Shown: positions 12,212-30,375, counted from the first letter of the stretch. The stretch: DNA of 64,000 bases from Candidatus Gottesmanbacteria bacterium (GCA_016214885.1 JACRMP010000005.1:134725-198724); one strand, 5' to 3'. The notes: generated by a model not told the origin, from the letters alone. Translations and numbers: made by a program.

Positions 12212-12221
12212 AAGTAATAAT

Positions 12222-13708: not shown

Positions 13709-14056
13709 TTGACGCATCCGCTCAATTTTAGGTACACTGAAAGTATGTTTGAACAGGTGCTGGCCCAATCCGAAGATTTACAGGCGCTCGCCCCCAATCC
13801 CGGGCTTACATCGTTTGGCATGCTTATTACCGCAATTGTAAAGAATTCATTCGTTTTAGCAGGTATTATCAGCTTTATTTTGTTGATTTTCGGCGGATTT
13901 AACGTTATAGTAGCCGCAGGAGACGCCAAAAAGGCTCAACAGGGCAAAGCGGCAATTACAGGAGCCGTCACCGGACTGCTTCTGGTGCTTGGTTCTTTTT
14001 GGCTTGTCCAGATTATAGAAGTAATAACGGGTCTCAAGCTATTGAGTCCGCAATAA
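13709..14056 (+). CDS. TrbC/VirB2-like T4SS mini-pilin paralog
   Basis: Core FVLAGIISFILLIFGGFNVIVAAGDAKKAQQGKAAITGAVTGLLLVLGSFWLVQ. The likely true start is the internal MFEQVLAQ at 13745, which matches the xxLAQ leader of the other paralogs. Confidence 0.65.
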   Translation: MTHPLNFRYTESMFEQVLAQSEDLQALAPNPGLTSFGMLITAIVKNSFVLAGIISFILLIFGGFNVIVAAGDAKKAQQGKAAITGAVTGLLLVLGSFWLVQIIEVITGLKLLSPQ

Positions 14057-14065
14057 CACGAAATT

Positions 14066-14425
14066 ATGAAGCTGCTCGCACAGGCCGGAGAAATAGTCGG
14101 TTCAATAGAAAGCCCGCTTTCCAGCACCGGATACGGGAGCATATCATCGGGGGCTGTTGGATTGTTTATCACCAACGTTATCCGCTTGGCATTTGTCGCC
14201 GCCGGTATTTACGCCCTGTTTAACTTCATAATCGCCGGGTATTCATACATGAATGCTGCAGGTGACAGTAAAAAATTATCAGAAGCGTGGAGCCGTATCT
14301 GGCAATCCCTCATGGGTCTGGTTATTATTGTCGGATCATTTGCCCTCGCGTCATTGTTTGGCTACCTTATTTTCGGAAACGCCGGGTATATATTAAATCC
14401 GACTATCTACGGGCCCGGAGAATAA
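14066..14425 (+). CDS. TrbC/VirB2-like T4SS mini-pilin paralog
   Basis: MKLLAQ leader; core FVAAGIYALFNFIIAGYSYMNAAGDSKKLSEAWSRIWQSLMGLVIIVGSF. Confidence 0.65.
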   Translation: MKLLAQAGEIVGSIESPLSSTGYGSISSGAVGLFITNVIRLAFVAAGIYALFNFIIAGYSYMNAAGDSKKLSEAWSRIWQSLMGLVIIVGSFALASLFGYLIFGNAGYILNPTIYGPGE

Positions 14426-14426
14426 T

Positions 14427-14792
14427 ATGCGTGAACTTGCATTAGAATTAGGTCAAATCGGCGGCGAAGGCCTGGGGCCATTCGGATCAAACCCGGGCGA
14501 CGGGCTGACCGGCATCACCAGCATAGTTTCTTCTGTCATCGGCATCATGACAATAGCAGCAGGCATATGGTTCCTGTTCCAATTCATTATCGGAGGATTT
14601 AATTGGATCAACGCCGGAGGCGATAAAGCAAAGCTCCAGACATCCAAAGACAGACTTACCAATGCGTTTGTCGGGCTTATTGTCGTCGTTGCCGGGTGGG
14701 CAATCTTAGCCCTTGCAGGCACATTCTTTAATGTTGATTTCACCATATCAAATCCGGGCTCCCTGTTGCAGCAGCTGAGTCCGAACCGATAA
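14427..14792 (+). CDS. TrbC/VirB2-like T4SS mini-pilin paralog
   Basis: Core IAAGIWFLFQFIIGGFNWINAGGDKAKLQTSKDRLTNAFVGLIVVVAGWAILA. Confidence 0.65.
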   Translation: MRELALELGQIGGEGLGPFGSNPGDGLTGITSIVSSVIGIMTIAAGIWFLFQFIIGGFNWINAGGDKAKLQTSKDRLTNAFVGLIVVVAGWAILALAGTFFNVDFTISNPGSLLQQLSPNR

Positions 14793-14796
14793 CACT

Positions 14797-15138
14797 ATGA
14801 ACACTCTCGCCCAAATAGTAAATCCAGTACTCCCCGGCGCTCTGGGAAGCGGCGGCAACAGCACCGGGCCATCAGCGCTGGGCTCAATTATCAGCTCGCT
14901 TGTGGGTGTTTTTCTTATTCTTGCCTTCATTTCCGCCCTGCTTTACATGTTTCTTGGCGGATTTGACTGGATCACGAGCGGAGGCGACAAAACGAAACTT
15001 CAATCATCCCGGGACAAGATCACCAACTCCCTGGTAGGTCTTGTTGTTGTCGGAGCATCGTGGGCGGTTATGATGATTGTCGGCAACTTTATGGGCATTG
15101 ATTTCCCTAACCTACCTATTCCTGTTATCGGCAATTAA
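14797..15138 (+). CDS. TrbC/VirB2-like T4SS mini-pilin paralog
   Basis: MNTLAQ leader; core LYMFLGGFDWITSGGDKTKLQSSRDKITNSLVGLVVVGASWAVMM. Confidence 0.65.
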   Translation: MNTLAQIVNPVLPGALGSGGNSTGPSALGSIISSLVGVFLILAFISALLYMFLGGFDWITSGGDKTKLQSSRDKITNSLVGLVVVGASWAVMMIVGNFMGIDFPNLPIPVIGN

Positions 15139-15198
15139 CCAAGAGTGATAGGCTAAACCAAGAAAAAATAAACCTGTTTATTGACAAACCGAGTTTTG

Positions 15199-15228
15199 TT
15201 GCGCAAAAATGGAAGGTAGTGGTATAAT
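15199..15228 (+). promoter_or_regulatory. candidate sigma-70-type promoter upstream of pilin paralog 15263
   Basis: TTGCGC (15199..15204), an 18-nt spacer, then TATAAT (15223..15228), and AAAGGA 8 nt before the ATG at 15263. It lies in the only sizeable gap inside the pilin array. Confidence 0.35.
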
Positions 15229-15262
15229 AAAGCTTGTATTGATTTGACGAAAGGATTCATTT

Positions 15263-15592
15263 ATGCAAAAAGTATTTGCCCAAGCAGCACTGGATGTTAA
15301 ACAGCCGGACACTATCAAAATCACCGACATCGGCAAACTGATCAGTGCCCTCGTCGGAACCGTTCTTATCATCGCAGCGCTTTTGGCATTTCTTTACCTC
15401 ATCCTGGGAGGCATTAAGTGGATCACCTCCGGCGGCGACAAGGCCGGTATGGAAGAGGCGCGTAACAAAATTACCCACGCCATCGTCGGACTCATCATTG
15501 TCGGCTCTGCCTGGGCAGTGATGACGCTCGTCCAAAACTTCTTGGGCGTGCAGATCATCGGTGGTTCCATAAACTTCCCGAAGCCATACTAA
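15263..15592 (+). CDS. TrbC/VirB2-like T4SS mini-pilin paralog
   Basis: MQKVFAQ leader; core LYLILGGIKWITSGGDKAGMEEARNKITHAIVGLIIVGSAWAVMT. Confidence 0.65.
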   Translation: MQKVFAQAALDVKQPDTIKITDIGKLISALVGTVLIIAALLAFLYLILGGIKWITSGGDKAGMEEARNKITHAIVGLIIVGSAWAVMTLVQNFLGVQIIGGSINFPKPY

Positions 15593-15651
15593 CCGTTCAC
15601 AAAACGATTTTGGGCTTTACTCTGTAAGACTCCTGGGGGATAATATTATAT

Positions 15652-15948
15652 ATGGAAAGCTGCTCGATAGACGGCGTTGTACAAATCACCTGTATCATCC
15701 CGCTCGTTGCCAATGTAATCCGCGCTGTAGTGGCATTAGGCGCAGTAGCTCTGTTTGTCATGCTTCTTGCAGGAGGATTTAATTTCCTGTTTTCTTCCGG
15801 CGATCAAAAAAAACTTGAAGCTGCACGGGGCACCGTAACCCAGGCAATTGTTGGTATTATTATCATGTCTGTAGCATTCCTTATCTTACGCACCATACAA
15901 TTATTTACGGGAGTTGACGTGTCTACACTGCAGTTTCCTACACCGTAG
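15652..15948 (+). CDS. TrbC/VirB2-like T4SS mini-pilin paralog (shortest)
   Basis: Core VMLLAGGFNFLFSSGDQKKLEAARGTVTQAIVGIIIMSVAFLILR. Confidence 0.6.
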   Translation: MESCSIDGVVQITCIIPLVANVIRAVVALGAVALFVMLLAGGFNFLFSSGDQKKLEAARGTVTQAIVGIIIMSVAFLILRTIQLFTGVDVSTLQFPTP

Positions 15949-16000: not shown

Positions 16001-17626
16001 ATGAAGCGATTATTTTTAACCATCACCGGACTCATTCTGGCACTTGCTGTTTCAGTAAACCCGCTCCGTGTATACGCACAGGGTGCTGATGCCGCCGCAA
16101 CAACAGCTCCCGCAGCTGGTGAATGCGATTCCTGGTTTGTGGCTCCGGTCACTTGTCTTTTGGAACCGATAACCAAAGGTGTTGCGGGATCCCTCAATAA
16201 ACAAATCGGCGACATCGGCACAGCAACATTTGCCATGGGGCAAATGGTTATTGCCGGCATGGGACTATGCGATTCTGAATGCAATCCGAATTGTCCCAAG
16301 GGAGTGAGTTTCCAGCACAGTGCAGTTGCCGGTCTTTCGACGACGGCGCTTGCGATGTACCAAAATCCTCCCGCAGAAACCAAAACCTATATTGCCGATG
16401 TCGGAAGAACCCTAGGATTCATGCCGAGAGTGCAGGCACAGGGAATCGGATTCTCCGGTCTTTCTGCACTTCTTGACCTGTGGAAAGCATTTAGAAATAT
16501 TGCCTATGCCCTGCTCGCCATCATCCTTATTGTCGTAGGCTTTATGGTCATGTTCCGGAAGAAAATTGACCCCAAGACTGTAGTGACGGTACAAAACGCA
16601 ATCCCACGCATCGTTATCGCCCTTCTTCTGGTTACCTTCTCTTATGCCATAGTAGGTGTCATGATTGATCTGATGTATCTGGCGATCGTGCTTATTGTTT
16701 CTATCGTTGCCGGAGCAGCGGGACCTTCTCTGGGACAATCAGTGAGCCTGTTTACAACAGGTGGCTCATGTGTAGGCGCCGGCAGCGGAGCGGCGGTAGA
16801 AATCGGCGGGGGCACCGCAACCACCCAGCAAGTTTCCACAATACTGTTTAACGGCGGCGTCGGCGGACTTATGCAGTTTTTTATGGGAAGCGGATTTCAG
16901 GCGTGGGACGATATTGCCTCCATGCTTACCGGAGGATTTGACGCAAAAACTACCGCAGCATACTTTATTGTCCCCGGTCTAATCGGCGCACTCGTCGGCG
17001 GCGGAAAAGGATTGTTTACCGGTCTTGTATCAGCGCCCATACTATTAACACTTATTATCCTTATCGTCTTAATCTTCGGGTTTATCCGACTTGTATTCAT
17101 GCTTATTGATGCGTATATCAATATCATCATTTCGTTACTCACTGCCCCATTCCACCTTATGATGGAGGCAATTCCGGGAACCAATGCGTTTTCCAACTGG
17201 TTTAAGAACCTATTATCCAAAATAATAGTATTCCCGATAACTGCGGTGTTACTTCTGGTTGCGGCGGTCTTGACCAGCCAGAATGTCGCTACCAAGATAT
17301 GGGCACCACCCATGCTTTCGAGCGGCGGCGGCGCGTTTGGCATGGCTGGTATTATCGGACTCGGCATGCTGCTTGTTATCCCGACCGTAGTTGCGGGCAT
17401 CCAAAAAGGACTTAAGGCAGAACCTCTGGTGCCGGGCGGAGTGGCGCCTATATTCGGTCCATTGGGAAGCGGCGTCGGACAACTCTTCTCGTTGGTATAT
17501 CAGGCGTCATTTGTCTCGAGTGCGCTACGGCACAAACCAGACGACAGAAGCGGTATGCAATTAGCACGCGAAGGCTCAACAAAGGGCTTGGGTGCCATCA
17601 CCGGTGGCGGCAGCGGCGGCCATTAA
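16001..17626 (+). CDS. VirB6/TrbL-like polytopic T4SS membrane protein with signal peptide
   Basis: Signal peptide MKRLFLTITGLILALAVSVNPLRVYA, a periplasmic Cys-containing N-domain, then at least six TM helices rich in Gly/Ala, and a Gly-rich tail ...GGGSGGH. It directly follows the pilin array. Confidence 0.55.
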   Translation: MKRLFLTITGLILALAVSVNPLRVYAQGADAAATTAPAAGECDSWFVAPVTCLLEPITKGVAGSLNKQIGDIGTATFAMGQMVIAGMGLCDSECNPNCPKGVSFQHSAVAGLSTTALAMYQNPPAETKTYIADVGRTLGFMPRVQAQGIGFSGLSALLDLWKAFRNIAYALLAIILIVVGFMVMFRKKIDPKTVVTVQNAIPRIVIALLLVTFSYAIVGVMIDLMYLAIVLIVSIVAGAAGPSLGQSVSLFTTGGSCVGAGSGAAVEIGGGTATTQQVSTILFNGGVGGLMQFFMGSGFQAWDDIASMLTGGFDAKTTAAYFIVPGLIGALVGGGKGLFTGLVSAPILLTLIILIVLIFGFIRLVFMLIDAYINIIISLLTAPFHLMMEAIPGTNAFSNWFKNLLSKIIVFPITAVLLLVAAVLTSQNVATKIWAPPMLSSGGGAFGMAGIIGLGMLLVIPTVVAGIQKGLKAEPLVPGGVAPIFGPLGSGVGQLFSLVYQASFVSSALRHKPDDRSGMQLAREGSTKGLGAITGGGSGGH

Positions 17627-17709: not shown

Positions 17710-20700
17710 CTAATGCCCTCCCCCGCCAGCACTCTTCTGCTCTTCTACGGACTTTTCCGCAGCGATAGCAAGAGTTGCAAGGATGGGCACCCACCAATAC
17801 TTCCGCCCCATTGCCCAGAGCCGGTCAATAAGGGTGGTGTGGAACTCTTTCTGTAAATCCTGCAGGTACTCGGGGTGATTGATAAACAACCCCATATCGT
17901 GAGCGGTATGGATAATCTCCGACATTTTTATCTCATCCCACACATTTCCGTGGGAACCCGTGTATCGGGTTGAATAAGAAACCGCCTCAGCAATAGAATG
18001 CGGCCAATGGGCAATTTTTTCTTTCGCCAGGTGCTCCCAACGCTCTTTACCGAATATCGTCTGCAGCAGTTTGTTTTTCTCCAGACCACGGAAGTCCGGC
18101 TCAAAATGCTGGAGCAATCCGGTTAAACCAGGCACCAATTGCATTGATAGGTGCCTCCCCTTGTTCATCTCAAAAAACACGCGCATCATTTCCTTGACCG
18201 TTGCCTCGGCTGCATCAGGACCAGAATAATCAACGATGGCGGTGCGCACTTCCATCATCTTCTGCAAACTCTTAGTGTAGTCATTGGGGGAAAGCACCAT
18301 CTCGGAATTGGAGAAAAATTCCAGCATGCCGTCGCGGGCGCGCATCTGGGCGCCGACATCGCGGATCCTCCGGTGCATCGCAACAGTTCCGAGCTGATAA
18401 AAATTAGATTCTTTCCAGTCAAAGTCGGTTAAACTCATGGTAAGCGGCAACTTAAGCGCTGATATGGCGTCCATTTTATTCCTGAATGTAGCTCCCGACG
18501 CCTCAACCGTACGGCTCCGGTATATTTCCGCCTGCATATCCACAATCACCTGGCGCATGTTTTCATTGCGCGCGGGGTCGAACTTTAACAATTTAAGATA
18601 AGGCGCCACCAGTGCATCAAAATCTTTTTTGTCTGCCAAATCAATACGGGCAAACTGCCAATCTTTCTCATGGGCCATTTTCAGTTCAGCAAGCGACAGC
18701 GCTTCCTTAAACTTTTTCCACTCTTCGTGGGTTACATTATTTTTGGTTAATATCTTTTCCGTATCTTCTTCCAGTAGTTCAAGGAACTTAGAGGGGTTTC
18801 TCCGGAGCATGCGGTCGAGTATCGGTTTGCGCTCTGCAGCGTTTCCGGCAGTCAGCAACTGGATAGACAGCGCTTGGTTATCAAGAAGCGCAGCGTTTTC
18901 CGGAAGCTTCTTCATACTGAGCATCTTGCCTCGGAGTTCGTCAGATATTCCTTTTTCAAGCCGCCACGCGGTTCCGTCATAAAATCCTCCGGATGACATA
19001 AATCCGGGGCCTAATAACTCGCTGAAGGATATGCCGGTTGCATCCTCGGCAAACTCCCAGGTTTCCATTGCTTTCTGCCGCTGCTTGTCGTGCTCATGAT
19101 GCTTGGCGTCATGCCATTCGTGGGTTTTAGTAAGCTTCATCTTTTGTCCGATACTTTCCGCCATGCCTCCCAGATACTTCCTGAACCACCCCACTTCTTT
19201 AGGATTAATGCCCTTGGTGGTCAGAAGGTTTTTCCGGAATATGCTCCGAGCAGTAATACCCATGTCGCCGCCGATATTAAACCGGGTGGCAAATGTTTCC
19301 GGGTTGAATATGCGCTGAATATCCTCAAAAGCAGGAGCGCGCATCACGTGTTTGCCCGACGCTGTCCCATATTCGTTTGCCGGAGGAACAGACATCATGG
19401 CACCAATCATCGCCATACGCCCGCTCCCTATCATGGCCGTGCGCGATGCCCACAGTGCCATACGGACTTCATATTCGGCCGGTTTATAATTTGGATCCTC
19501 GGGATGCTGCGCCTGCAGATACTCCACAAGCCGCTTTCTCACCTCAATATCGACGGGTGATAATCCGCGGGTTTCCAACAGCTCCTGGGTGAAGTTTTCA
19601 TTAAGCATTTCTTCACGGTGTGAGTAAATCTGATAAAGGCGTTCAACTTCGGATAGCTGCTCCATTTCCTTTTCATTAAGTGCCACTCCCTCGCTCTTTT
19701 TCTTTAAGAGGTCCTCGCGGGCATTACGTAGCTTAGACAGGGTAATATGAAGCTCTGTATAGCTTTGCACGTCATCGTCCCACAGCATCACCCCTTCTGC
19801 TGCCAAGTCCTGCTGCTGCTGGATCTCGTGCATAAGCCGCTGGTCTTCAACAGACAACGGACTCTGGGTTTTCCCCTTTTCCGGGTCATATCCTTCCTGC
19901 CGTTGTTTTGCCTTAAGTTCTTTGAGAATGTCCTCGCGTTTCATCTTGCCGCCGTTCCAGTTCACTTCTTCCCGCATGTATTTCACTGCTTCTCCGTATT
20001 TTGCCCGCTTTGTTGCCATAAGCTCAAAAAGCACGTGTTCATACAGGCTGTATGCCTCGTTTGAATGATCGAAATTTTTATATAGGTGATCAAGGTCTGC
20101 TCCTTGGAGCAAACTCATGGCCTTAAGCCGGTCCTTCACGTCGCCCGGGTTATACATGAGTCCTTTTACGGCATATTCGTATTGACCGCGGCTATCCCAA
20201 TGCTTCTGGTACAACTGAACCGCCAAATGATATTCACTGCCGTATTTCCATACAAGGAAGTCCTTGAATTCCTGGAAGCGCTGATCCTGGGTAAGTGTCG
20301 GCCTGGTTTCTTCGCGGCCCATGGAATATATTTGGTCAATAAAATCGAAGTACCACCTAGCCTCTCCTTCATCTCCCTGGATAAGCATTTCGACATCAGA
20401 CGGCGGAATATACCGGAAATCGGGGAACACTTCGTCAGGTTTATGGAGTTCGGGGTTCGGCGAGTTCCCCATCACCTCGCCCCAGGTAACCACACGGCCG
20501 CCCCTGAGTTTCTCCTGGTGCTTCTGCATCCGTAAATCAGTAAAGCGCTCAAACTGGCGGACGCGTTCAACCGCCTGCTGCACCAATTTTTCACTTACTC
20601 CTTCTTTTCTCCCTTTTTCCACCATGCGGCGGACAGCGTCGTCTGTAAGTCTGCCGTCATACGCAGCTCCCGGATCGACCCGGAACCGAAACTGCAGCTC

Positions 20701-21327
20701 TTTAAGATCGGATGCTAGCGGTGTGTCTTTAAGATCCACGTCGGCTGCTTCGTCATATAAACTCTTCACTGCTCCCGTAAGCTCAGGGTCATTATCTCTA
20801 ACAGGTTCCCCGGCTTCACCATCTTCCCCCACTCCGGAGCCGCCCTGAATAACCGGCACCGCTTCGTATGCAATGCCTTCCAGTGTCGGGTGCTCCGCAA
20901 TAATTTTGCGCAAATATTTCCTCGCCTCAACGGCGGTGGGGCTTGTATATTCTGCTTCTTTGGCCACCCGTGCTAACCGCTCGGCAACCCCCCGCATATA
21001 CTCAGGATCGGCCAACTGGGATTCGTCTGCGGTAAGAAGCGACTCAACAATACTAAACACTCTGGCGTCTTTAGGTAAATCGGATTCATTCCCCACAATC
21101 CTTTTGGTTGTTTCTGATGTCGTCTCCTTGAGCTTGCCCACCAGCGCTGCCAGACGATCTACAGACACGGTGTGCTCACCTGTTTCGGGCACTTCAGGAG
21201 GTGCTTCCGCGGGAGGAGGCGTCGGCTCAACGGGGGCAGCCTGCTCCACTGGCTTAGCGGGCTGACCTGCTTCTGCAGCTTTTTTGGCCGCCTCATTTAA
21301 CCGCTTAAATAGTTCTTCGTTAGCCAT
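17710..21327 (-). CDS. large (1205 aa) tail-anchored protein of unknown function, T4SS-associated by position
   Basis: A single uninterrupted ORF. The N-terminus is Pro/Ala/Glu-rich (PVEQAAPVEPTPPPAEAPPEVPETGEH); the body is mostly predicted-helical and soluble; a His-rich segment THEWHDAKHHEHDKQ is present; one C-terminal TM (YWWVPILATLAIAA) is followed by SAGGGGH at the C-terminus. Confidence 0.55.
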   Translation of the reverse strand: MANEELFKRLNEAAKKAAEAGQPAKPVEQAAPVEPTPPPAEAPPEVPETGEHTVSVDRLAALVGKLKETTSETTKRIVGNESDLPKDARVFSIVESLLTADESQLADPEYMRGVAERLARVAKEAEYTSPTAVEARKYLRKIIAEHPTLEGIAYEAVPVIQGGSGVGEDGEAGEPVRDNDPELTGAVKSLYDEAADVDLKDTPLASDLKELQFRFRVDPGAAYDGRLTDDAVRRMVEKGRKEGVSEKLVQQAVERVRQFERFTDLRMQKHQEKLRGGRVVTWGEVMGNSPNPELHKPDEVFPDFRYIPPSDVEMLIQGDEGEARWYFDFIDQIYSMGREETRPTLTQDQRFQEFKDFLVWKYGSEYHLAVQLYQKHWDSRGQYEYAVKGLMYNPGDVKDRLKAMSLLQGADLDHLYKNFDHSNEAYSLYEHVLFELMATKRAKYGEAVKYMREEVNWNGGKMKREDILKELKAKQRQEGYDPEKGKTQSPLSVEDQRLMHEIQQQQDLAAEGVMLWDDDVQSYTELHITLSKLRNAREDLLKKKSEGVALNEKEMEQLSEVERLYQIYSHREEMLNENFTQELLETRGLSPVDIEVRKRLVEYLQAQHPEDPNYKPAEYEVRMALWASRTAMIGSGRMAMIGAMMSVPPANEYGTASGKHVMRAPAFEDIQRIFNPETFATRFNIGGDMGITARSIFRKNLLTTKGINPKEVGWFRKYLGGMAESIGQKMKLTKTHEWHDAKHHEHDKQRQKAMETWEFAEDATGISFSELLGPGFMSSGGFYDGTAWRLEKGISDELRGKMLSMKKLPENAALLDNQALSIQLLTAGNAAERKPILDRMLRRNPSKFLELLEEDTEKILTKNNVTHEEWKKFKEALSLAELKMAHEKDWQFARIDLADKKDFDALVAPYLKLLKFDPARNENMRQVIVDMQAEIYRSRTVEASGATFRNKMDAISALKLPLTMSLTDFDWKESNFYQLGTVAMHRRIRDVGAQMRARDGMLEFFSNSEMVLSPNDYTKSLQKMMEVRTAIVDYSGPDAAEATVKEMMRVFFEMNKGRHLSMQLVPGLTGLLQHFEPDFRGLEKNKLLQTIFGKERWEHLAKEKIAHWPHSIAEAVSYSTRYTGSHGNVWDEIKMSEIIHTAHDMGLFINHPEYLQDLQKEFHTTLIDRLWAMGRKYWWVPILATLAIAAEKSVEEQKSAGGGGH

Positions 21328-21410
21328 AGAGCGTAAACGACACGAAATAACGCGCTAAATACATGCGCCTCTTAATATTCTATCGTTTCGATCCGCTACA
21401 AACAAGGGAG

Positions 21411-21965
21411 CTATCGATAAAGACCGTGGGTAGCAATATACTGGCTGACATCGGGCGGTACGAACTCGTCAATCGACAGACCTGCTTTCACCCGCTCGCG
21501 GATTTTTGTCGATGAAATATTGCTCCCGATAAGAAAATCGCTGGTGATCAGCGTCATATGAGGATACAGCGGCTCGTTGGGAAACCCATACCGGGGAAAC
21601 ACCAGAAACGGCATATGCCGCAGCAATTCTTCCCATTTGCCCCACAAATGAAACGTCGGAAGCTGATCAGAGCCGATAATAAACCGAAATTCGTGTCCGT
21701 TTGGCAAGTGCGGCAACAGGTGAATAGTGTCCCCGTCAAGCTTGTGGTCAATTTCCAGTGTGGAAACTTGGGTTTTCTCAAATTCCAGAAGCTTGGTCAT
21801 CGCAAGGCGGTGCGATACTTCAATAACCGGCTTGGGGGGGATTTGTCCATAATTAGGAAGAAACCATACCTCGTCGGCATCCGTAAAATCCAGCACCTGC
21901 CGGGCAATCATCAGGTGACCTATGTGGGGAGGGTTAAACGCGCCGCCCAAGAGTCCGATCTTCAT
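21411..21965 (-). CDS. nadD: nicotinate-nucleotide adenylyltransferase
   Basis: MKIGLLGGAFNPPHIGHLMIARQVLDF (the (H/T)xGH nucleotidyltransferase motif) and IGSDQLPTFHLWGKWEELL. Confidence 0.85.
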   Translation of the reverse strand: MKIGLLGGAFNPPHIGHLMIARQVLDFTDADEVWFLPNYGQIPPKPVIEVSHRLAMTKLLEFEKTQVSTLEIDHKLDGDTIHLLPHLPNGHEFRFIIGSDQLPTFHLWGKWEELLRHMPFLVFPRYGFPNEPLYPHMTLITSDFLIGSNISSTKIRERVKAGLSIDEFVPPDVSQYIATHGLYR

Positions 21966-21971
21966 AGCCTC

Positions 21972-24155
21972 CTATTCTACCTTTTTTGTGTACCGTTCGC
22001 GAGAAACACGGATAACGGTCTCCCGCTGTTCGTTGCGGCTCTTTGGAAGCGGAAGGGTGGTAGCAGAAAAAGGTGTCGATGTTTGATTATCTATAGATAG
22101 CTTGAGAACGACCTCAAAATTCCCGAGTCCCACCAGCTCCGCTTCTTCATATTTTTCACCAAACTCGCGCCCCAACATGCGGGCGTCAGCTGCTCCCACC
22201 GCAAACGATATGATGGAGCCCGCGTTGCCGAAAATCGCTTTCTGTACATCCTCGTCAATCTGCCCCACATATTGGTTGGCAAGGGCGAGGTTCAGCCGGT
22301 ATTTACGCGCCTCGGAGAGAATCTTAATAAACGACTGGGTGGCAAAATTCTGGAATTCATCGACGTAGAGATAAAAATCACGTCTGTTTTCTTCTGCGGT
22401 ATATACCCTATTCATGGCGGCTAATTGCATCTTGGTAATAATCATTGCCCCCAACAGCGCACTACTATCTTCTCCGAGTTTCCCCTGTGCCAAATTCACG
22501 ATGACAATTTTCCCTTCATTCATCATGCGCTCCAAATCCACTGTCGATGACGGGCTTCCCACTATGTTTCTGATCGTTTTGGAGGAGAGAAACTGCCCGA
22601 CTTTATTAAGTATCGGCGAAATCGACTCGCTCTTCATCTGCGGCGACAACCTGTTAAACTCGTTAAGCCAGAAATTCTTCAGCACCCGGTCATCCAATTT
22701 TTCGACTACCTTCTCACGGAAGCGATCGTTGGTCAGAAGCTCCGGGATATCCAAAAATGTCGATTGCGGTACGTGGGTGAGCGTTAAAATGGTGTTACGT
22801 AAAATATACTCAAGCCTAGGACCCCAACTCATATGGTATAGCTTGTAAAATATGGAAACAATACCGGAAGCGATGAGTTCACGGTACGCAGAATTTTTTA
22901 CCTCCAGAGGATTTAAGTGGAACGGGTGCTCGGTGTCAGACGGATCAAGATACGCCACATCGTTCATACGGTGTGAAGGAATATAATCAAGCAAAATATC
23001 ACTCAAGTCCCCGTGGGGATCAATAACGGCCACTCCCTCGCCGTTTTTCATATCATTAATTGCCATATTGGCAATAAGGGTGGATTTGCCTGTTCCTGTT
23101 TTTCCGATGATATACATATGCTTCCGGCGGTCCGCCTTTTTCACACCGAACGTGGTGGGAGTATTCTTATATTCCGTACGGGCAAAGAAATTTATGGATC
23201 GTTTCTCCTCATCGCTTCCGCCGGCAATCGGAAGATTCTCAGGAGCTTCTCCCAACAAATGCGCCCCCCAACGGATATTCTTAATCATCGACAGACCCAT
23301 CCCTGGAGGATGCCACAATGACGCCAACTCAGAAGACCCCAACACCTGATACTTTGGCCGGGCATAGTCACCGCGTGCTATCACGCTTTGTTCCAGTTTG
23401 TTTTTCTGCCAGAACTGCGGCTCGTGGAGCACCAAGCTGTTTCCACCGCCAAGACTATACACCCCAAATGTACCGGAGGCCGTGTGAAGCAGATGTTGCG
23501 CCCGCTCAACAGAACCCGCCACCGAAATAAGCCTTATCGCCGCATAAAATCCCACCTGATTCATTTTAATTTCCATAAGCCGGGCGTGCGGATGGGTCTT
23601 TGTCCTCCCTGTTGTAGAGTTAGGGTCGGCAACCCCTTTGGCGATAAGGGCCGCTATTCCCCGCTGCCAACTGTTGCCCGCGGGAGCTATACGGATCTGG
23701 ACGGCCATTGCTTCCTGCGGAGATAATTTAGCGAGCTGGCCAACAACACCAGAGAGGATATCGAGATCCTTCATGTCTTTGTAGGTTTTAAGCGGCAGAT
23801 AATAACTGTTTCCGTACACCAACTGACCTACCGCATGCGGAAGGGTCAAAAAATGCGGCATATAGTCTTTTGCCGGGGAAATAAGCACCCGCGGATACTG
23901 CGCAGTAAGCTGACTTTCCACGTATCCCCTCTGGGACTGGGGGGTTACGAGAAAAAAATGGATACCGCTATTAACAGACGCTATCTCCAAACTTAAAAAA
24001 GAAGAAGGGGCGCCTCCTCCGAACAACATCTGGAATATATTGCGGTGACCTCCCCCGGTGCTTAACGCAGCAAGCACCTGCTCCATAGCCAGCGGCGGTT
24101 CTTCGCTTTCCCTGCTATTTTGGATTTCCAACACGACGGGATCAATTGACGTCAT
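21972..24155 (-). CDS. VirD4/TraG-family T4SS coupling-protein-like ATPase with a novel roughly 330-aa N-terminal domain and no N-terminal TM anchor
   Basis: Walker A YIIGKTGTGKSTLIANM and AVIDPHGDL; Walker B FYLYVDEFQNF; RKYRLNLALANQYVGQI resembles the TraG-D_C signature. It is transcribed divergently from the VirB4 operon. Confidence 0.55.
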   Translation of the reverse strand: MTSIDPVVLEIQNSRESEEPPLAMEQVLAALSTGGGHRNIFQMLFGGGAPSSFLSLEIASVNSGIHFFLVTPQSQRGYVESQLTAQYPRVLISPAKDYMPHFLTLPHAVGQLVYGNSYYLPLKTYKDMKDLDILSGVVGQLAKLSPQEAMAVQIRIAPAGNSWQRGIAALIAKGVADPNSTTGRTKTHPHARLMEIKMNQVGFYAAIRLISVAGSVERAQHLLHTASGTFGVYSLGGGNSLVLHEPQFWQKNKLEQSVIARGDYARPKYQVLGSSELASLWHPPGMGLSMIKNIRWGAHLLGEAPENLPIAGGSDEEKRSINFFARTEYKNTPTTFGVKKADRRKHMYIIGKTGTGKSTLIANMAINDMKNGEGVAVIDPHGDLSDILLDYIPSHRMNDVAYLDPSDTEHPFHLNPLEVKNSAYRELIASGIVSIFYKLYHMSWGPRLEYILRNTILTLTHVPQSTFLDIPELLTNDRFREKVVEKLDDRVLKNFWLNEFNRLSPQMKSESISPILNKVGQFLSSKTIRNIVGSPSSTVDLERMMNEGKIVIVNLAQGKLGEDSSALLGAMIITKMQLAAMNRVYTAEENRRDFYLYVDEFQNFATQSFIKILSEARKYRLNLALANQYVGQIDEDVQKAIFGNAGSIISFAVGAADARMLGREFGEKYEEAELVGLGNFEVVLKLSIDNQTSTPFSATTLPLPKSRNEQRETVIRVSRERYTKKVE

Positions 24156-24277: not shown

Positions 24278-25600
24278 ATGGAACAGCACCCAGTGCCGCA
24301 AAACGTAACCACTTTTCAATTCCGTCTCATAGGAGACATGACGATCAAACAATTCGGATATCTTATTGCCGGAGGCATCCTCGCGGTTATTGCATACAAA
24401 TTACCCCTTCCGTTTATCATCACCTGGCCGCTTGCGGGTGCGTTTGCATTTTTAGGAGTGGGGTTTGCGTTTATCCCCGTCGAGGAACGGCCGATGGACG
24501 TATGGGTGTTCTCATTCTTTAAAAGCGTGTATAGCCCGACACAGTATATATGGTCACACGACCAAACTCCGGAAAACGCGGCCACTGCTGCTACCCCCGA
24601 TGTTATACATACTCCCACAAAACCTGCCCCGCTTACGGCTGCAACACCGGCACCCGCACCACAACCGGTACAAGTAGCACAACCGCAGGCCGCCAAAGCT
24701 GTGCTGACCGGATTGTTCCAACCCACCCAACAGGTCGCTCCCCCACCAAAACCGGTAGCGTTTACCGTGCCAGCAAAACACACATCGTTTATGGACGAGG
24801 TTATGGGATGGCTTTTTCCTAAACCTAAGGCCGCTACTGCGCCGGTACCCCCTCAGGCAGCAACACCTTCCGTAACAGGATACCGGCCTCCCGCGCCCCC
24901 TACCGCGGCACCTGTTTCGGCAGCAGATACCAAAGCTAACGAAGCCATTCACAACAAAATGACCCAACTGGAAGACACCCTAAAAACGTTGGAGGAGCGG
25001 TTGTCCACAAAAACCATAACTGAGGACCGGGTGTTGGAACTGCAAAAACAACTTACCGACGTCTTGTCACAAAAAGCAAAAACCGAAGACGAGCTTATTG
25101 CGTTAAAGCGGCATCTTACCACCCCACCGCCTCAACCTTCCGTGCCCCCACAACCCACAACGGTTGCCCAACCGCAACAAAAAGAGGCGCCTCTCACCCC
25201 GGCCTCCCGCGGGGCAGTAAATGTCATCACCACGCAGGAGGGGGCAGTAAAGGCGGGGCTCCCCCGGCTTACTAATGTCCCCAATGTCATAACGGGGCTT
25301 GTCAAAGACGACACGGGCAACTTTCTTCCCGGCATACTCGTTACTGTAACAAACAGCGACGGCATCCCCATGCGCGCGCTCAAAACAAACAAGCTCGGAC
25401 AGTTTGCTGCCTCAACCCAACTCGCGTCCGGAACATATTTTGTGGAAGTCGAAGATCCGAGGGGAAGATTTACCTTTTCCCGCGTGCAGATTACCCTAAA
25501 CAATGCCGTTGTTCCCATTCTCGAAATAATTGCAAAAAGCGAAAAAGCGCTCACCCGAGAAAAACTTGCACAGGAAATTTTTGGTAAACCAAATCTGTAA
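24278..25600 (+). CDS. mosaic T4SS membrane protein: VirB3/PrgI-like two-TM N-terminus, Pro-rich linker, coiled coil, C-terminal CarboxypepD_reg-like beta-sandwich
   Basis: Two TM helices at the N-terminus (YLIAGGILAVIAYKL, ITWPLAGAFAFLGVGFAFIPV); PAPLTAATPAPAPQPVQVAQPQ low-complexity region; heptad segment LEDTLKTLEERL...LELQKQLTD; C-terminal GLVKDDTGNFLPGILVTVTNSDGIPMRALKTNKLGQFAASTQLASGTYFVEVEDPRGRF. Confidence 0.45.
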   Translation: MEQHPVPQNVTTFQFRLIGDMTIKQFGYLIAGGILAVIAYKLPLPFIITWPLAGAFAFLGVGFAFIPVEERPMDVWVFSFFKSVYSPTQYIWSHDQTPENAATAATPDVIHTPTKPAPLTAATPAPAPQPVQVAQPQAAKAVLTGLFQPTQQVAPPPKPVAFTVPAKHTSFMDEVMGWLFPKPKAATAPVPPQAATPSVTGYRPPAPPTAAPVSAADTKANEAIHNKMTQLEDTLKTLEERLSTKTITEDRVLELQKQLTDVLSQKAKTEDELIALKRHLTTPPPQPSVPPQPTTVAQPQQKEAPLTPASRGAVNVITTQEGAVKAGLPRLTNVPNVITGLVKDDTGNFLPGILVTVTNSDGIPMRALKTNKLGQFAASTQLASGTYFVEVEDPRGRFTFSRVQITLNNAVVPILEIIAKSEKALTREKLAQEIFGKPNL

Positions 25601-25603
25601 CCT

Positions 25604-26266
25604 ATGGCCGAACCAATTACTCCAATCAGAGACTCAACGCAAATGTTTACTGAAATCGTGGCAGTGGATCACGACCTTGTCTTGTTCCGCGACGGATCGG
25701 TTGCCCTTGTCATTGCTACTACCGCGGTAAATTTTGGGTTGCTTTCTGAAAAGGAACAGGACGCGATCATCTATTCCTATGCAGGGCTTCTTAACTCATT
25801 GTCATTTCCCATACAAATCCTTATTCAGACAAAACACAAAGACATTTCCGCCTACCTTAAGCTCCTTGAGGATCAGGAGTCGCGGCAAACGAACCCCAAG
25901 CTGACCCGCAACATTCACAGTTACCGGCTCTTTGTAGCTTCTATGGTAAAGGAAAAAGATGTTTTGGATAAAAAGTTTTATATCGTTATACCTTTTTCAA
26001 GCATTGAGCTTGGGGTGTCTTCATCGCTCTTGTTTAGTCCGAAAAAATCAGGCCTCCCGTACGAAAAGTCATATATCTTTGACAAGGCGCAACTGGTGCT
26101 GGTGCCCAAACGTGATCATATTTTGCGCTTACTGGCGAGGGTGGGTCTTAAGGCCACACAACTGTCTTCCGATGCGCTCGTAAATCTGTTTTTCAGCATG
26201 TATAACCCGGGAAGCCCCGCCCCAGATGTCACCCGGCTGTTTCCGGGAAAGGAGCCGCATGAGTAA
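25604..26266 (+). CDS. soluble hypothetical protein inside the T4SS operon
   Basis: 220 aa with no TM helices. Its 3' end overlaps the VirB4 start by about 8 nt, suggesting translational coupling. Confidence 0.4.
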   Translation: MAEPITPIRDSTQMFTEIVAVDHDLVLFRDGSVALVIATTAVNFGLLSEKEQDAIIYSYAGLLNSLSFPIQILIQTKHKDISAYLKLLEDQESRQTNPKLTRNIHSYRLFVASMVKEKDVLDKKFYIVIPFSSIELGVSSSLLFSPKKSGLPYEKSYIFDKAQLVLVPKRDHILRLLARVGLKATQLSSDALVNLFFSMYNPGSPAPDVTRLFPGKEPHE

Positions 26267-28190
26267 ACCATTTAATCTAACGACATTTGTAAGCGGATTT
26301 ATGAATCCGGTAAAGCCGGGTTTGTCTTCACCGCGGCAATCAGGGCAACCGCTCGTCGTTACCGACATTATTGCTCCTCCCGCAATCGAGGTGGATTTTG
26401 ATCTTCTGAAGATCGGCGACTGGTACTATAGATCGCTTTTTGTCGCCGGATATCCTCGCTTTGTATCAGCAAACTGGCTTGAGCCGCTGGTTTCTTTTAA
26501 CCACACGCTCGATATATCAATGTATATCTATCCCACCCGGAGCGAAGAAATATTAGAAAACCTGAAGCGAAAAGTGGGAGAAATGGAAGCGACCATCCAA
26601 TCGGATCTCAAACGCGGCCGCGTTATTGAGCCGTCAGTGCAGGTGGCTCTGGAAGATGCATTGGCACTGCAACAGGAGTTGGCAAAAGGATCAGAGCGGT
26701 TTTTCCAATTCGGCCTTTATGTAACAATTCCCGCAAAAACCCGTGAGGATCTGGATAAAACAACCAAATCCGTTGAGGCAACGCTCGGAAGCTTACTTAT
26801 CGTCACCAAAAAATCCATCCTCCAGATGGAAGAGGGGCTCAAAACCACGCTTCCCATGGGACGAGACAGATTACTGGTCACCCGCAACATGGACACCACG
26901 TCGCTCGCAACCACGTTTCCGTTTACGACCAGCGAACTTACTGCCAACGAAGGAATTCTCTATGGCCTTAATGAACACAATGATTCGCTTATTATCTTCG
27001 ACCGATTCACTCTCGAAAACGCAAACTCTGTCGTGTTCGGCAAATCAGGAGGCGGAAAAAGCTACATGGTCAAACTGGAGATCATGCGGAGCCTCATGTT
27101 CGATACTGAAGTTATAGTCATCGACCCTGAAAATGAATATGAGGCGCTTACCCACACACTTGGAGGGGAATATATCCGGTTCCGTTTCGGCTCCAACACA
27201 AAACTCAACCCATTTGATCTGGCCCTACTCGGCAATGACGGAGCCTCACAAAGCGAACTCAGCCAAAAAGTATTGTCGTTACACGGGTTTTTCCGTGTGG
27301 TTATGGGCAAACTTACCCCGACAGAAGACGCGTTGCTTGATAGAGCGCTCATCCTTACCTATAAGCAAAAGGGTATTACTCCCGACCCAACTACCCACAG
27401 CAAAGAGCCGCCGCTCATGGAGGATCTTTATAAAACACTGGTGGGAATGGAAGAGCTCCTTGCGAAGGGGCTTGCCGACCGTATCGAAAAATTTGTCAAA
27501 GGAAGCTTGGTGGGCATATTTGACCAGCAAACAAATATAGAAATCAGAAACCAGCTAACTGTGTTTTCCATCCGCGACCTTGAGGACGAGCTCAGACCGA
27601 TTGCCATGTATCTTATTTTGGATTACATCTGGAACAAAATACGGCACAACAAAAAACGGCGCCTGCTTATTGTTGACGAGGCCTGGTACATGATGAAATA
27701 CCCTGATTCGGCACAATTTTTATACGGTATTGCGAAACGTGCAAGAAAATACTACCTTGGCTTGACTACCATAACCCAGGACGTCGAGGATTTTATGGCA
27801 ACGGAAATGGGCAAGGCCATTATTCAAAATAGCAGCATGCAGATACTTCTCAAACAATCCTCTGCTGCCATAGATACCATTGCTCAGGTGTTTTACCTTT
27901 CGGAAGGAGAAAAGCACCTGCTTCTTGCCGCCGATGTCGGTCAGGGATTGTTTTTTGCGGGACCCGCTCATGCCGCCATGCGGGTTATTGCAAGTCCCGA
28001 AGAGCACGCGGTTGCCACCACCAAGCCACAGGAGGCGCTCAAGGCTAAACCCACCGTTCAAAACACACAACCCGTTCATCCCTCCGAAGCCATGCCCGCT
28101 CCGCAGCAAAACGCGGCGCCCACTACCCCGCCGCCCTCCAACCGGCCGATTTTCACCGTAGAAACAGTAGACACTAAGCCGACGCCGTAA
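26259..28190 (+). CDS. VirB4/TrsE/PrgJ-like T4SS ATPase
   Basis: CagE_TrbE_VirB-type N-region IEVDFDLLKIGDWYYRSLFVAGYPRFVSANWLEPL; Walker A VVFGKSGGGKSYMV; Walker B RRLLIVDEAWYMM; Pro/Ala-rich C-terminal tail. The start is trimmed to MSKPFNL. Confidence 0.75.
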   Translation: MSKPFNLTTFVSGFMNPVKPGLSSPRQSGQPLVVTDIIAPPAIEVDFDLLKIGDWYYRSLFVAGYPRFVSANWLEPLVSFNHTLDISMYIYPTRSEEILENLKRKVGEMEATIQSDLKRGRVIEPSVQVALEDALALQQELAKGSERFFQFGLYVTIPAKTREDLDKTTKSVEATLGSLLIVTKKSILQMEEGLKTTLPMGRDRLLVTRNMDTTSLATTFPFTTSELTANEGILYGLNEHNDSLIIFDRFTLENANSVVFGKSGGGKSYMVKLEIMRSLMFDTEVIVIDPENEYEALTHTLGGEYIRFRFGSNTKLNPFDLALLGNDGASQSELSQKVLSLHGFFRVVMGKLTPTEDALLDRALILTYKQKGITPDPTTHSKEPPLMEDLYKTLVGMEELLAKGLADRIEKFVKGSLVGIFDQQTNIEIRNQLTVFSIRDLEDELRPIAMYLILDYIWNKIRHNKKRRLLIVDEAWYMMKYPDSAQFLYGIAKRARKYYLGLTTITQDVEDFMATEMGKAIIQNSSMQILLKQSSAAIDTIAQVFYLSEGEKHLLLAADVGQGLFFAGPAHAAMRVIASPEEHAVATTKPQEALKAKPTVQNTQPVHPSEAMPAPQQNAAPTTPPPSNRPIFTVETVDTKPTP

Positions 28191-28194
28191 CCCT

Positions 28195-30375
28195 ATGACA
28201 GACACGCCACAGACACTGCGCGAGTTTGCCCAAAACCTGCTATCGGATTTATCAAGCGGAGCAATCACTGTTCATGAGGCGTACGCAGCGGCCAACCAAT
28301 ACGCATACCTCCGTCAGGAACTCACCGGCGCATCGCTTACCCTCAGTGAGGCGGCGGCGCTCGGTGATGAAGAGCTCGTCCAAGCATTTACCAGTATCCT
28401 CTCTGAAACGGTAAAAAAGCTGTCAGAGTTACCGAACTTTCAAACACAACAACCAGACGCAGTTGAAACGGAGAAAAACATCCGGGACGTGGCGGCTTTA
28501 CAAAAAACAGCCACAACCCGCATACGGGAGTCAGAAAAAAATAAACCGGATAAAAATAAGCGAAGAGCGTTTGTTCATTCGTTGGTTGACCGCTTCAGCT
28601 CTACCATACCCGCGCTCACCGAGCGTCAGATTGACCGCCTGATAGAAAAGTCCTCGGTAACGGCCGCGCGGGCAACGCCTACCGATCAACAGTCGCGGTT
28701 TACCCAACAGCTCGCTGATTCTATAGAAAGCCTTGCCGGTGATATACCCGATGACCAAAAAAGAAATATAGATACGGTTATCCGAGCCGCCGTTGCAGAA
28801 CAGAAAGACGTTGTTAACACACAGATCGCCGGCGCCAGACGGGAACTGGCCGTATATGCTGCGCTTTTCGGCGTCACTGAACTCAAGCGACCGGATGTGT
28901 TTGCCGACGTTATACTTAACGCCCCGCAATCAGAACAGTTGGATGTGTCATTAACCCGCGCAGAAAAACTTGCCCGCGTTGCACAGGCTCTGGAAGAATC
29001 CAGCAATTCCCGTGGTGGCAAACTGCAATTTTTCTCGGCTAACGGAGCTAAGGGAGTTGCCGGCGGATTGCAAAAAGGCGCTGATGGCATCCTTTCACTT
29101 ATCGGGGAGCCGGCTCGGGAAATGCTTCTCCATGAAAAAGTAAACGGAACGCTCCGGAATATGCTTACCAGCACTCAACAGTTTGCAGACCGGCTAGGCG
29201 AATCGTTTGTTCATTCTGCGGTGTTTACCCACATTACCCAGGACCTCACCAAGCAACTTGCCCAAAAACCACAGGGCGGTCAGGCGCGGTCTGTTTTTGA
29301 TGACGTATTTTCCTCAGTATTCAGGGGGCCTCTCGCCGCCCCGCTTACCCGCAGCACAAAAAGCGGTATTCTGGATTTTTATGAGCTTGCCCGCGCCAAT
29401 GCAGCAGCCCCGTTAGGAAAAAAGTTTCTCGCTCCCGGCGTACTCCCGTGGGATATTTTCCGCGCGTTTGAACCGGGGGGCATGACTTCCTCTGGAAGCT
29501 ATAAAGGGCCTTCTGCGCGTAAACCATTTCTATCGCTTCTCGGCTTCGGATCGTTTGGGAATTTTTTGGGGGATATGGTAAGCGGGCTCATCGACAAAAC
29601 AACGTCGATGGCGCTCCTTAATCCCAGGCTCCCCGGACAACTTTCTGCCTCCAGAAGAGCGGCCGGCATACCCACCCCCCTTGTCGATGATATGCCCCTC
29701 TTAACGGCCCTTGTTGTTGTAGTAGTACTAGTCCTTCTCTTTCTCCTCCCCTCGCCGCTTAACCTCAATACAATCAACCACAGCTCAAAGGCAAGCGCTC
29801 TTCTGGCTGCTCTTTCAGATGGTCTCCAGACAATAATAAACCCGATCGCCGAAATTATCTGTGTCGGCGAGTGCAAGTGGCCGACATCAGGAACAATAAC
29901 TCAGGGTCCGAACACAAGCTCTTCACATAAAGGTACGATTAAGGAAAGCATAGATATTGGAACTTCGTGCGGCACACCCGTAGTTTCCACGCTTCAGGCC
30001 GGCGCGGTGGTGACGGGGGTATTCAACGAATGTCTCGACGATACCGGATATATCGGGAATAAATGCGGTGGCGGCTGGGGAAATTACGTTGATATTAAAG
30101 GGACAATTAATACGGGCACAGGAAAAGCAACTGCCGTAACGGTGCGGCTTTCACACCTTATGAAAAACAGCATGCCTCCCTCAGGAACAGTTTTACAACA
30201 GGGACAAAAAGTTGGCCAGGTTGATGACAACGGAAACTCCTCTGATTGCCATCTCCACTACGAGGTTAGGAGCGGGGGTCCTATAAACAACGTTCTTCCC
30301 TACCCGGTTCCTTCCTGTACAAGCTCGGCGGCGTGTTGTTCGCAAATGGGTGTAAAATGTAATGTAACTCCATGA
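28195..30375 (+). CDS. membrane-anchored M23 (LytM) peptidase, T4SS-associated peptidoglycan hydrolase (PrgK/VirB1 analog)
   Basis: Long helical N-terminal region, a TM helix LLTALVVVVVLVLLFLLPSPL, then the M23 signature GWGNYVDIKG...VRLSHLMKN...GQKVGQVDDNGNSSDCHLHYEVRSGG. Confidence 0.65.
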   Translation: MTDTPQTLREFAQNLLSDLSSGAITVHEAYAAANQYAYLRQELTGASLTLSEAAALGDEELVQAFTSILSETVKKLSELPNFQTQQPDAVETEKNIRDVAALQKTATTRIRESEKNKPDKNKRRAFVHSLVDRFSSTIPALTERQIDRLIEKSSVTAARATPTDQQSRFTQQLADSIESLAGDIPDDQKRNIDTVIRAAVAEQKDVVNTQIAGARRELAVYAALFGVTELKRPDVFADVILNAPQSEQLDVSLTRAEKLARVAQALEESSNSRGGKLQFFSANGAKGVAGGLQKGADGILSLIGEPAREMLLHEKVNGTLRNMLTSTQQFADRLGESFVHSAVFTHITQDLTKQLAQKPQGGQARSVFDDVFSSVFRGPLAAPLTRSTKSGILDFYELARANAAAPLGKKFLAPGVLPWDIFRAFEPGGMTSSGSYKGPSARKPFLSLLGFGSFGNFLGDMVSGLIDKTTSMALLNPRLPGQLSASRRAAGIPTPLVDDMPLLTALVVVVVLVLLFLLPSPLNLNTINHSSKASALLAALSDGLQTIINPIAEIICVGECKWPTSGTITQGPNTSSSHKGTIKESIDIGTSCGTPVVSTLQAGAVVTGVFNECLDDTGYIGNKCGGGWGNYVDIKGTINTGTGKATAVTVRLSHLMKNSMPPSGTVLQQGQKVGQVDDNGNSSDCHLHYEVRSGGPINNVLPYPVPSCTSSAACCSQMGVKCNVTP

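Follow-up and report, generated by a model that had tools for sequence, protein, structure and literature searches.

A family of large all-alpha proteins paired with a VirB6-like polytopic protein and pilin genes in type IV secretion loci of Microgenomatia

Introduction

Much of the diversity among uncultivated bacteria is accounted for by the Patescibacteria. Among the components of type IV secretion systems (T4SSs), the monoderm proteins of the TcpH, ConG and Orf15 type are examples of extended VirB6 proteins. Polypeptides of this kind are equipped with sizeable hydrophilic domains whose role is unknown (PMC12857230). In the VirB6-like proteins SEML1_0013 (1088 amino acids, aa) and SEML1_0011 (998 aa) of Southlakia epibionticum, the C-terminal domain is all-alpha and resembles ARM repeats (PMC10633639 supplement), and the T4SS cluster of this organism is essential and holds six pilin genes (PMC10633639). 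Here we examine a 64,000-nucleotide (nt) stretch of DNA from a Candidatus Gottesmanbacteria bacterium, which is uncultivated and ultrasmall (GCA_016214885.1 JACRMP010000005.1:134725-198724; the window, hereafter) and, within it, the gene of a 1205-aa protein, labelled BIG, that is situated in a T4SS locus. A sequence-only reading of the window had singled out this gene as a candidate for a novel structural component, an effector or an effector-docking platform of the secretion system.

The T4SSs of Patescibacteria have been described as chromosomal, MPF-FATA-like systems that feature arrays of VirB2-like pilins and lack a relaxase; VirB6 homologues are reported to be scarce in Microgenomatia (Quinonero-Coronel et al. 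2025; PMC12102498). The one genetically tractable member of the Patescibacteria cannot grow on its host without the T4SS, for which substrate and mode of action are unknown and which involves neither a relaxase nor, in that species, a recognisable coupling protein (PMC10633639, PMC12102498). The locus in the window resembles the surveyed systems in having VirB4, a TraC-like/TrsD-like protein, a PrgI/VirB3-like protein, a type IV coupling protein (T4CP), an M23 peptidase and a VirB2-like array, in its chromosomal location beside dnaN/dnaA, and in the lack of a relaxase. Judged by its gene content, it is a chromosomal, origin-proximal, MPF-FATA-like Patescibacteria T4SS. It differs in the presence of a member of a large partner family that the survey does not describe, and the evidence that ties this family to the secretion module is the main subject of the current study.

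Results

The BIG open reading frame (ORF) extends from ATG to stop, is found in a single copy in the window, and is convergent with the gene of a 541-aa polytopic membrane protein at a distance of 83 nt (Table 1). Identical gene order was found in 14 of 14 genome loci that hold BIG. These loci are from close relatives, with the whole region syntenic and the housekeeping genes included in the synteny. Ten contexts of family members down to ~17-33% identity show the BIG homologue always convergent with the polytopic gene, which in turn follows pilin genes wherever the contig reaches that far. A converse scan, in which metagenomes were searched with an alignment of the polytopic protein, yielded 79 loci, 43 of them with a complete 3' end of the polytopic gene and a further 3 kb or more of sequence. 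In 42 of these 43 loci, the polytopic gene faces a convergent ORF of 550 aa or more within 250 nt; in the remaining one, a 276-aa pilin-like ORF is followed by an ORF of 1190 aa. Homology to BIG is detectable for 34 of the 43 partners, by the family hidden Markov model (HMM) or by six jackhmmer rounds, and the remote partners are collinear with BIG in an N-terminal region (~64-460) and a C-terminal module (~930-1088) that holds R986, R987 and D990. Most of the convergent partners comprise 920-1412 aa and have a hydrophobic helix at the C-terminus. This helix is missing from four short partners (595-842 aa; loci L084, L088, L092 and L099), and in L084, L092 and L099 genes for PrgI-like, TraC-like and VirB4-like proteins come next, at no more than ~1 kb and on the other strand; the short-partner loci may represent a trimmed-down form of the module from a different lineage.

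On its other side, the polytopic gene is accompanied by pilin genes in 47 of the 49 loci that offer enough sequence, with a median of six, which is also the pilin count in the large majority of related loci (L028-L105) with enough sequence. The far flank of BIG is a different matter. It involves NadD, NadE and T4CP genes in many loci, a class-I tRNA synthetase together with an FMN-dependent dehydrogenase in L022 (where the T4CP is missing from the neighbourhood), and a MazE/PIN pair in L026. The outer flanks differ also in L056, L067, L077 and L098, and BIG, the polytopic gene and the pilins stay together there too. The unit of about six pilins, polytopic protein and large partner is nearly invariant while the outer neighbours vary, and the pairing of the two large genes is near-obligate. 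Because the neighbourhood is conserved even where the other flanks differ, the gene contexts strongly support that BIG is tied to the T4SS module. The association that the sequence-only reading had drawn from position, between the pilin array and the T4CP gene and convergent with virB6, is hence upheld in the contexts examined, with BIG or a collinear remote homologue at the expected place and with the detail added that a NadD-like gene intervenes before the T4CP gene.

The same contexts bear on the idea that BIG is a lineage-specific housekeeping scaffold, involved for example in envelope, division or chromosome handling, which would owe its position to a conserved gene order near the origin. 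Genes for the mevalonate pathway, ECF sigma factor, Yip1 protein, NadD/NadE, dnaN and dnaA do occur in the same order in the region, the conservation of BIG is housekeeping-like, and the convergent orientation offers no operon argument for a T4SS role. However, L022, L026, L056, L067, L077 and L098 keep BIG with the polytopic gene and the pilins and not with the housekeeping genes. In addition, the pairing outlasts detectable sequence similarity of the partner, and in many cases both proteins terminate in a Gly-rich tail with His at its end. On this evidence, all of it genomic, we regard the explanation as unlikely.

BIG had been called an orphan, which is correct in that the protein is unannotated. 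A word-indexed search gave 40 full-length relatives at 58-100% identity, the sole name attached to them being "hypothetical protein" of a Patescibacteria bacterium; the named relatives from the genome scan come from Gottesmanbacteria, Woesebacteria or plain Patescibacteria, that is, from the class Microgenomatia. An exhaustive HMMER search, done with an N-terminally trimmed profile against 1.84 billion representatives, expanded the family to 103 proteins (clusters at 50% identity), of which 77 have E below 1e-30 and most have a length of 1150-1590 aa. A repeat of the word-index search with a diverse alignment brought one new protein only, and still more remote positional homologues exist beyond the 103 clusters. 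By these sequence relationships, BIG is no true orphan.

Conservation was analysed in an alignment of 65 family sequences that share 17-67% identity. Eight columns are invariant (E668, R672, F683, G690, R789, R986, D990, P1066), and a conservation of 80% or more is reached by 49 positions, none of which is a His, Ser or Cys. The invariant residues (three Arg, one each of Glu, Asp, Phe, Gly and Pro), together with the absence of a Walker A motif, give the family a non-enzymatic look. Across the related genome loci, identity to the proteins of the window is 59-88% for BIG. The corresponding ranges for other proteins are: T4CP, 67-86%; polytopic protein, 50-89%; 3-hydroxy-3-methylglutaryl-coenzyme A (HMG-CoA) reductase, 52-70%; M23 peptidase, 37-53%. 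Conservation of BIG among close relatives thus resembles that of core components or metabolic enzymes, and would be classed as housekeeping-like from these sequence comparisons. Two irregular loci were recorded. The orthologue in L011 (357-3984) is split into two ORFs of 521 and 712 aa, due to frameshift, assembly error or pseudogene formation, and the VirB4 ORF of L008 has 1276 aa, apparently from fusion with the next gene.

In agreement with the earlier statement that no catalytic family is recognisable, BIG has no match in Pfam, NCBIfam, PHROGs and PADLOC, and none was found for long and divergent family members scanned in addition. PDB sequences searched with the single BIG sequence and with the family profile returned nothing beyond helical, low-complexity similarity to designed repeat proteins. 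Signs of a P-loop NTPase of the VirB4, VirB11 or VirD4 kind are lacking at the levels of Pfam (no AAA/P-loop match), sequence inspection (no GxxxxGK[ST]) and fold (all-alpha). Assignment of BIG itself as VirB6/TrbL, which are polytopic with at least five hydrophobic helices, is not consistent with its single short C-terminal hydrophobic stretch. The protein contains zero Cys.

An AlphaFold (AF2) model built from the 65-sequence alignment comprises 1145 residues and is compact and all-alpha, with a predicted local distance difference test score (pLDDT) of 85.9 and predicted template modelling score (pTM) of 0.78. Its beta content is restricted to four strands of 3-4 residues each, and its only long low-confidence loop involves model residues 653-675, corresponding to full-length residues 713-735. 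The long helical body expected from the sequence is thus reproduced in a model almost wholly helical. Foldseek comparison of the model with PDB and BFVD, which had been proposed along with the structure prediction, gave no meaningful match (template modelling score, TM, ≤0.10). The top PDB matches are karyopherin-type alpha-solenoids and are insignificant (TM ≤0.10, probability ≤0.12). BIG shares with the HEAT/ARM alpha-solenoids, such as the karyopherins, that it is large and all-helical. It differs from them in that profile self-comparison by hhalign reveals no internal repeats (best off-diagonal probability 0.6%) and in that the model is compact, as far as the pTM suggests, as opposed to an extended superhelix. 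Going by the model, the BIG family has a fold without known counterpart. An initial AF2 run from a shallow alignment (35 sequences, 58-100% identity) had given a pLDDT of 60 and a pTM of 0.27, and the resulting model was discarded. The lowest confidence in that run fell on the most conserved blocks (model residues 315-359, 570-633, 703-759 and 901-931); the addition of members with 17-48% identity raised the pLDDT from 60 to 86, which is a warning against the use of single-clade alignments.

The sequence-only reading had further pointed to a cluster of His residues, THEWHDAKHHEHDKQ, as loosely recalling the His-triad motifs of relaxases, a hint it already doubted. The corresponding proposal would be that BIG is a divergent relaxase or DNA-processing enzyme, with the cluster as HUH/His-triad metal site, which fills the relaxase gap of the Patescibacterial T4SS loci. 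The His-rich stretch does exist, at residues 733-747 and directly after the long low-confidence loop of the model, but it is a lineage-specific element and not a family motif: at any one of its His positions, no more than 12% of the 65 family members have a His, only W738 is commonly retained, and none of the 49 positions with at least 80% conservation is a His. The sole near-invariant Tyr of the family, Y1034, is close to the C-terminus, whereas HUH relaxases have their catalytic Tyr in N-terminal position. The all-alpha model with its four short strands lacks the antiparallel beta-sheet core around which the HUH fold is centred, and no relaxase, helicase or nuclease was matched in Pfam, NCBIfam, PHROGs, PADLOC or PDB. 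The HUH/His-triad relaxase was rejected on this evidence, and we assign it practically no chance of being correct.

Regarding the protein's relationship to the membrane, the N-terminus of BIG, MANEELFKRLNEAAKKAAE, is hydrophilic and is followed by a linker rich in Pro, Glu and Ala. Sec/Tat-type signal peptides are therefore absent, as had been noted before, together with the Pro/Glu/Ala-rich N-terminal part, from the sequence. Close relatives share M1, E5, L6 and A14 without exception, and the columns of the linker vary; hydrophilic N-termini are found family-wide. At the opposite end of the protein, a conserved but short helix of 14-19 uncharged residues, YWWVPILATLAIAA in BIG, takes the place of the "one C-terminal TM" of the sequence-only reading. 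Its position is conserved, so is its lead-in (R-K-Y-W-W, with R1175, W1178 and W1179 kept in 88-91% of the family), and an acidic/basic tail follows. Hydropathy of the helix is below the level at which a transmembrane (TM) segment would be called: the uncharged stretch in the window protein has 14 residues, the best 19-residue Kyte-Doolittle window (KD19) is 0.92, and none exceeds 1.0 in the whole protein. Among 102 family members, median values are 1.18 for the best 19-residue window of the tail and 15 residues for the uncharged run, which reaches 20 residues at most. Likeness to bacterial tail-anchored proteins exists in the absence of a signal peptide, in the large cytoplasmic N-terminal body with one hydrophobic helix among the final 30 residues, and in the basic residues before and the short polar tail after the helix; the difference is in the helix itself, which in BIG is short and weakly hydrophobic. 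From such sequence features, the helix is a plausible, though unproven, candidate for a short tail anchor. Alternatively, the helix could pack against the TM helices of the polytopic partner.

These properties would also be compatible with BIG as a translocated T4SS effector that is made in the cytoplasm, recognised by the coupling protein and then exported, and whose moderately hydrophobic C-terminal helix inserts into the host membrane only after delivery. The protein has no signal peptide, its gene is downstream of the T4CP gene on the same strand, the hydrophobicity of the helix is below that expected for co-translational membrane targeting, and the fold is unknown, as in many effectors. 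The view taken in the literature is that Patescibacterial T4SSs export proteins or do other work in place of DNA conjugation (PMC10633639, PMC12102498). However, effectors typically vary in both presence and sequence, whereas BIG is a single-copy protein present in essentially all loci examined and constrained like core components. Its gene is paired with the polytopic gene and not with that of the T4CP, which is missing near BIG in L022, and the compact fold of the 1145-residue model would have to be unfolded for export. In light of these facts, we consider an effector function quite improbable.

The C-terminal end of BIG reads RKYWWVPILATLAIAAEKSVEEQKSAGGGGH. Within the window, a Gly-rich C-terminus with His as the last residue is seen in two ORFs only, those of BIG (...SAGGGGH) and the polytopic protein (...GGGSGGH). 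Both tails are kept in the close relatives and in several distant ones, and both are missing in L022, L023 and L026. When 56 distinct pairs were scored for His in the last three residues of both partners, the counts were 12/16/3/25, giving an odds ratio of 6.25 with a Fisher p of 0.014 that is not corrected for phylogeny. As a link between the partners, the association of the tails is suggestive only. The His-ended tails may form one metal site between them or act as a tag for recognition.

Upstream of BIG there is a promoter-like element, TTGTTT-17 nt-TAGAAT, that was missed by a consensus scan, for the -35 hexamer has 3/6 matches and fails the criteria of the scan. Because the TAGAAT box recurs before the orthologue in all 12 of 12 close (Gottesmanbacteria-type) loci, at 8-46 nt from the ATG, BIG probably has a promoter of its own, as far as the comparison of upstream sequences can tell. 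Given this spacing, some of the orthologue transcripts may be leaderless or have a short leader. An upstream ORF of 14 codons, MYLARYFVSFTLYG, has an AAGAGG Shine-Dalgarno sequence and ends 8 nt inside BIG, which itself is without an obvious Shine-Dalgarno sequence. This upstream ORF was dropped as a regulatory feature, as it is absent from relatives. A terminator-like hairpin sought in the 83-nt gap between BIG and the polytopic gene was not found.

The designation of the polytopic protein as "virB6" fits in position and topology, and it is on these two that the term VirB6-like, as used here, is based. The protein has no Pfam family, no PDB chain and no detectable VirB6/TrbL signature, and its relatives, at least 562, are all unannotated. 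By hydropathy, its C-terminus contains one long hydrophobic stretch that may be either one or two helices. The polytopic proteins of Microgenomatia have a length of only 430-580 aa. Among the six pilins preceding it, only the fifth exceeds the gathering score for PF18895; across the related genome loci, it is also much more conserved (83-100% identity) than the other pilins (45-94%).

BIG, the NadD-like gene and the T4CP gene are on one strand, with the T4CP gene furthest upstream. NadD, often together with NadE, is found between the T4CP gene and BIG on the same strand in L017, L018, L020, L023 and many metagenome loci, showing a NAD-biosynthesis pair inside a secretion locus that is kept over large distances. 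The PrgI/VirB3-like protein of the divergent operon comprises 440 aa, and its C-terminal CarboxypepD_reg/Ig-like domain is an unusual extension of extracellular type for a VirB3 homologue. Mevalonate genes (thiolase, HMG-CoA synthase, HMG-CoA reductase) adjoin the pilin array; they are accompanied by genes for a Yip1-domain protein and an ECF-type sigma factor, in an order kept across the class.

Table 1. Position of BIG, its sequence elements and the surrounding genes in the window (res, residues)
Feature	Coordinates	Strand	Basis or remark
Mevalonate genes	8851-12265	-	
Six VirB2-like T4SS pilin genes (98-121 aa)	13709..15948	+	all PF18895 T4SS_pilin, E 1.7e-10 to 4.7e-4
Polytopic membrane protein, 541 aa, signal peptide	16001..17626	+	"VirB6-like" by position and topology only
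Tail GGGSGGH of polytopic protein	17603..17623	+	ORF end
BIG gene, 1205-aa all-alpha protein	17710..21327	-	ORF, no library match, 103-cluster family at 50% identity, AF2 model
BIG C-terminal GGGGH tail, res 1201-1205	17713..17727	-	kept in relatives
BIG C-terminal hydrophobic helix YWWVPILATLAIAA, res 1177-1190, after R1175-K1176; putative short tail anchor	17758..17799	-	hydropathy, alignment
BIG invariant R986-R987-x-x-D990, in C-terminal module res ~930-1088	18358..18372	-	module found in remotest homologues too
BIG His cluster THEWHDAKHHEHDKQ, res 733-747, lineage-specific	19087..19131	-	65-sequence alignment
BIG most conserved motif, res 662-690, M-x-A-P-x-x-E668-D-x-x-R672-x-x-N675-P-E-x-F679-x-x-R-F683-x-x-G-G-x-x-G690	19258..19344	-	invariant and near-invariant columns, 65-sequence alignment
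BIG acidic/helical N-terminus, res 1-19 (MANEEL.KR..EAAKKAA), conserved, and variable Pro/Glu/Ala-rich linker, res ~20-52	21172..21327	-	alignment of close relatives
Upstream ORF of 14 codons	21334-21378	-	absent from relatives
Promoter-like TTGTTT-17 nt-TAGAAT upstream of BIG	21377..21405	-	sequence reading and upstream-region comparison
NadD-like cytidylyltransferase, between T4CP gene and BIG	21411..21965	-	PF01467, E 1e-18
VirD4-type coupling protein (T4CP)	21972..24155	-	PF10412, PF12696, PF01935; weak NCBIfam TraD/CD1115-type matches
Divergent T4SS operon	24278..30375	+	Pfam matches
PrgI/VirB3-like protein fused to CarboxypepD_reg domain	24278-25600	+	PF13620, E 1.3e-7
TraC-like/TrsD-like gene, 220 aa	25604-26266	+	PF26593 on 229-240-aa gene at same position (PrgI-like/VirB4 interval) in related loci
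VirB4	26226-28190	+	within divergent T4SS operon
M23 peptidase (VirB1 role)	28195-30375	+	within divergent T4SS operon
dnaN/dnaA	31341-34072		beyond M23 peptidase gene

Discussion

Based on the evidence collected in this study, we incline, with slightly more than even confidence, to an understanding of BIG as a cytoplasmic, compact, all-alpha protein of ~1200 aa that would serve the VirB6-like protein and the six-pilin array as their dedicated partner, functioning as a membrane-tethered scaffold or platform in the T4SS of Microgenomatia (Patescibacteria). Gene context, sequence conservation and the structure model all enter into this proposal. The protein would remain in the cytoplasm because it is made without a signal peptide, and its short conserved C-terminal helix (RKYWW...) would hold it at the inner face of the membrane, beside the VirB6-like channel subunit. 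From there, BIG could assemble the pilin/VirB6 module or, alternatively, dock cargo towards the VirB4/T4CP ATPases. The T4SS link behind the three roles initially offered, structural component, effector and docking platform, holds, and the evidence does not decide among them; a component of the machine is favoured over a variable effector because of the single gene copy, the near-universal pairing and the housekeeping-like conservation. Weighing against the tether is the hydrophobicity of the C-terminal helix, which is below standard thresholds.

The extended VirB6 proteins are the closest known thing to the arrangement proposed, and the correspondence to them is one by analogy. In both cases, a large non-membrane all-alpha module is tied to a polytopic subunit of VirB6 type in a T4SS of monoderm type. 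The difference is that in Microgenomatia the module constitutes a separate polypeptide of ~1200 aa, encoded by a convergent gene and equipped with its own C-terminal hydrophobic helix. BIG would thus be the functional counterpart of the large hydrophilic all-alpha domains that are found within the extended VirB6 polypeptides. The unannotated polytopic protein agrees with the scarcity of VirB6 in Microgenomatia according to published surveys, in which the BIG protein is not mentioned, and the sequence data allow the suggestion that polytopic protein and large partner may together be the missing, highly diverged VirB6 equivalent. One may go further and envision BIG as a new-fold core subunit of an essential Patescibacterial T4SS, a tethered gate or dock on the VirB6-like channel that, with the tails of the two proteins in shared and possibly metal-dependent contact, would set what moves between cell and host; this extension is speculative, and we think of it as rather unlikely.

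Lastly, our study has implications for how the secretion systems of these bacteria are understood. The polytopic protein and its ~1200-aa all-alpha partner, together with the six pilins, offer a candidate channel/platform pair for Microgenomatia. A lead to a "hidden relaxase" that was tempting and wrong is removed. The T4SS parts list is extended by a sizeable family of unknown fold, whose members present targets for co-folding, for pull-downs and for the interpretation of cryo-electron tomography data. An undescribed and fairly large protein family thus seems to be a regular constituent of the pilin/channel module in the T4SS of Microgenomatia.

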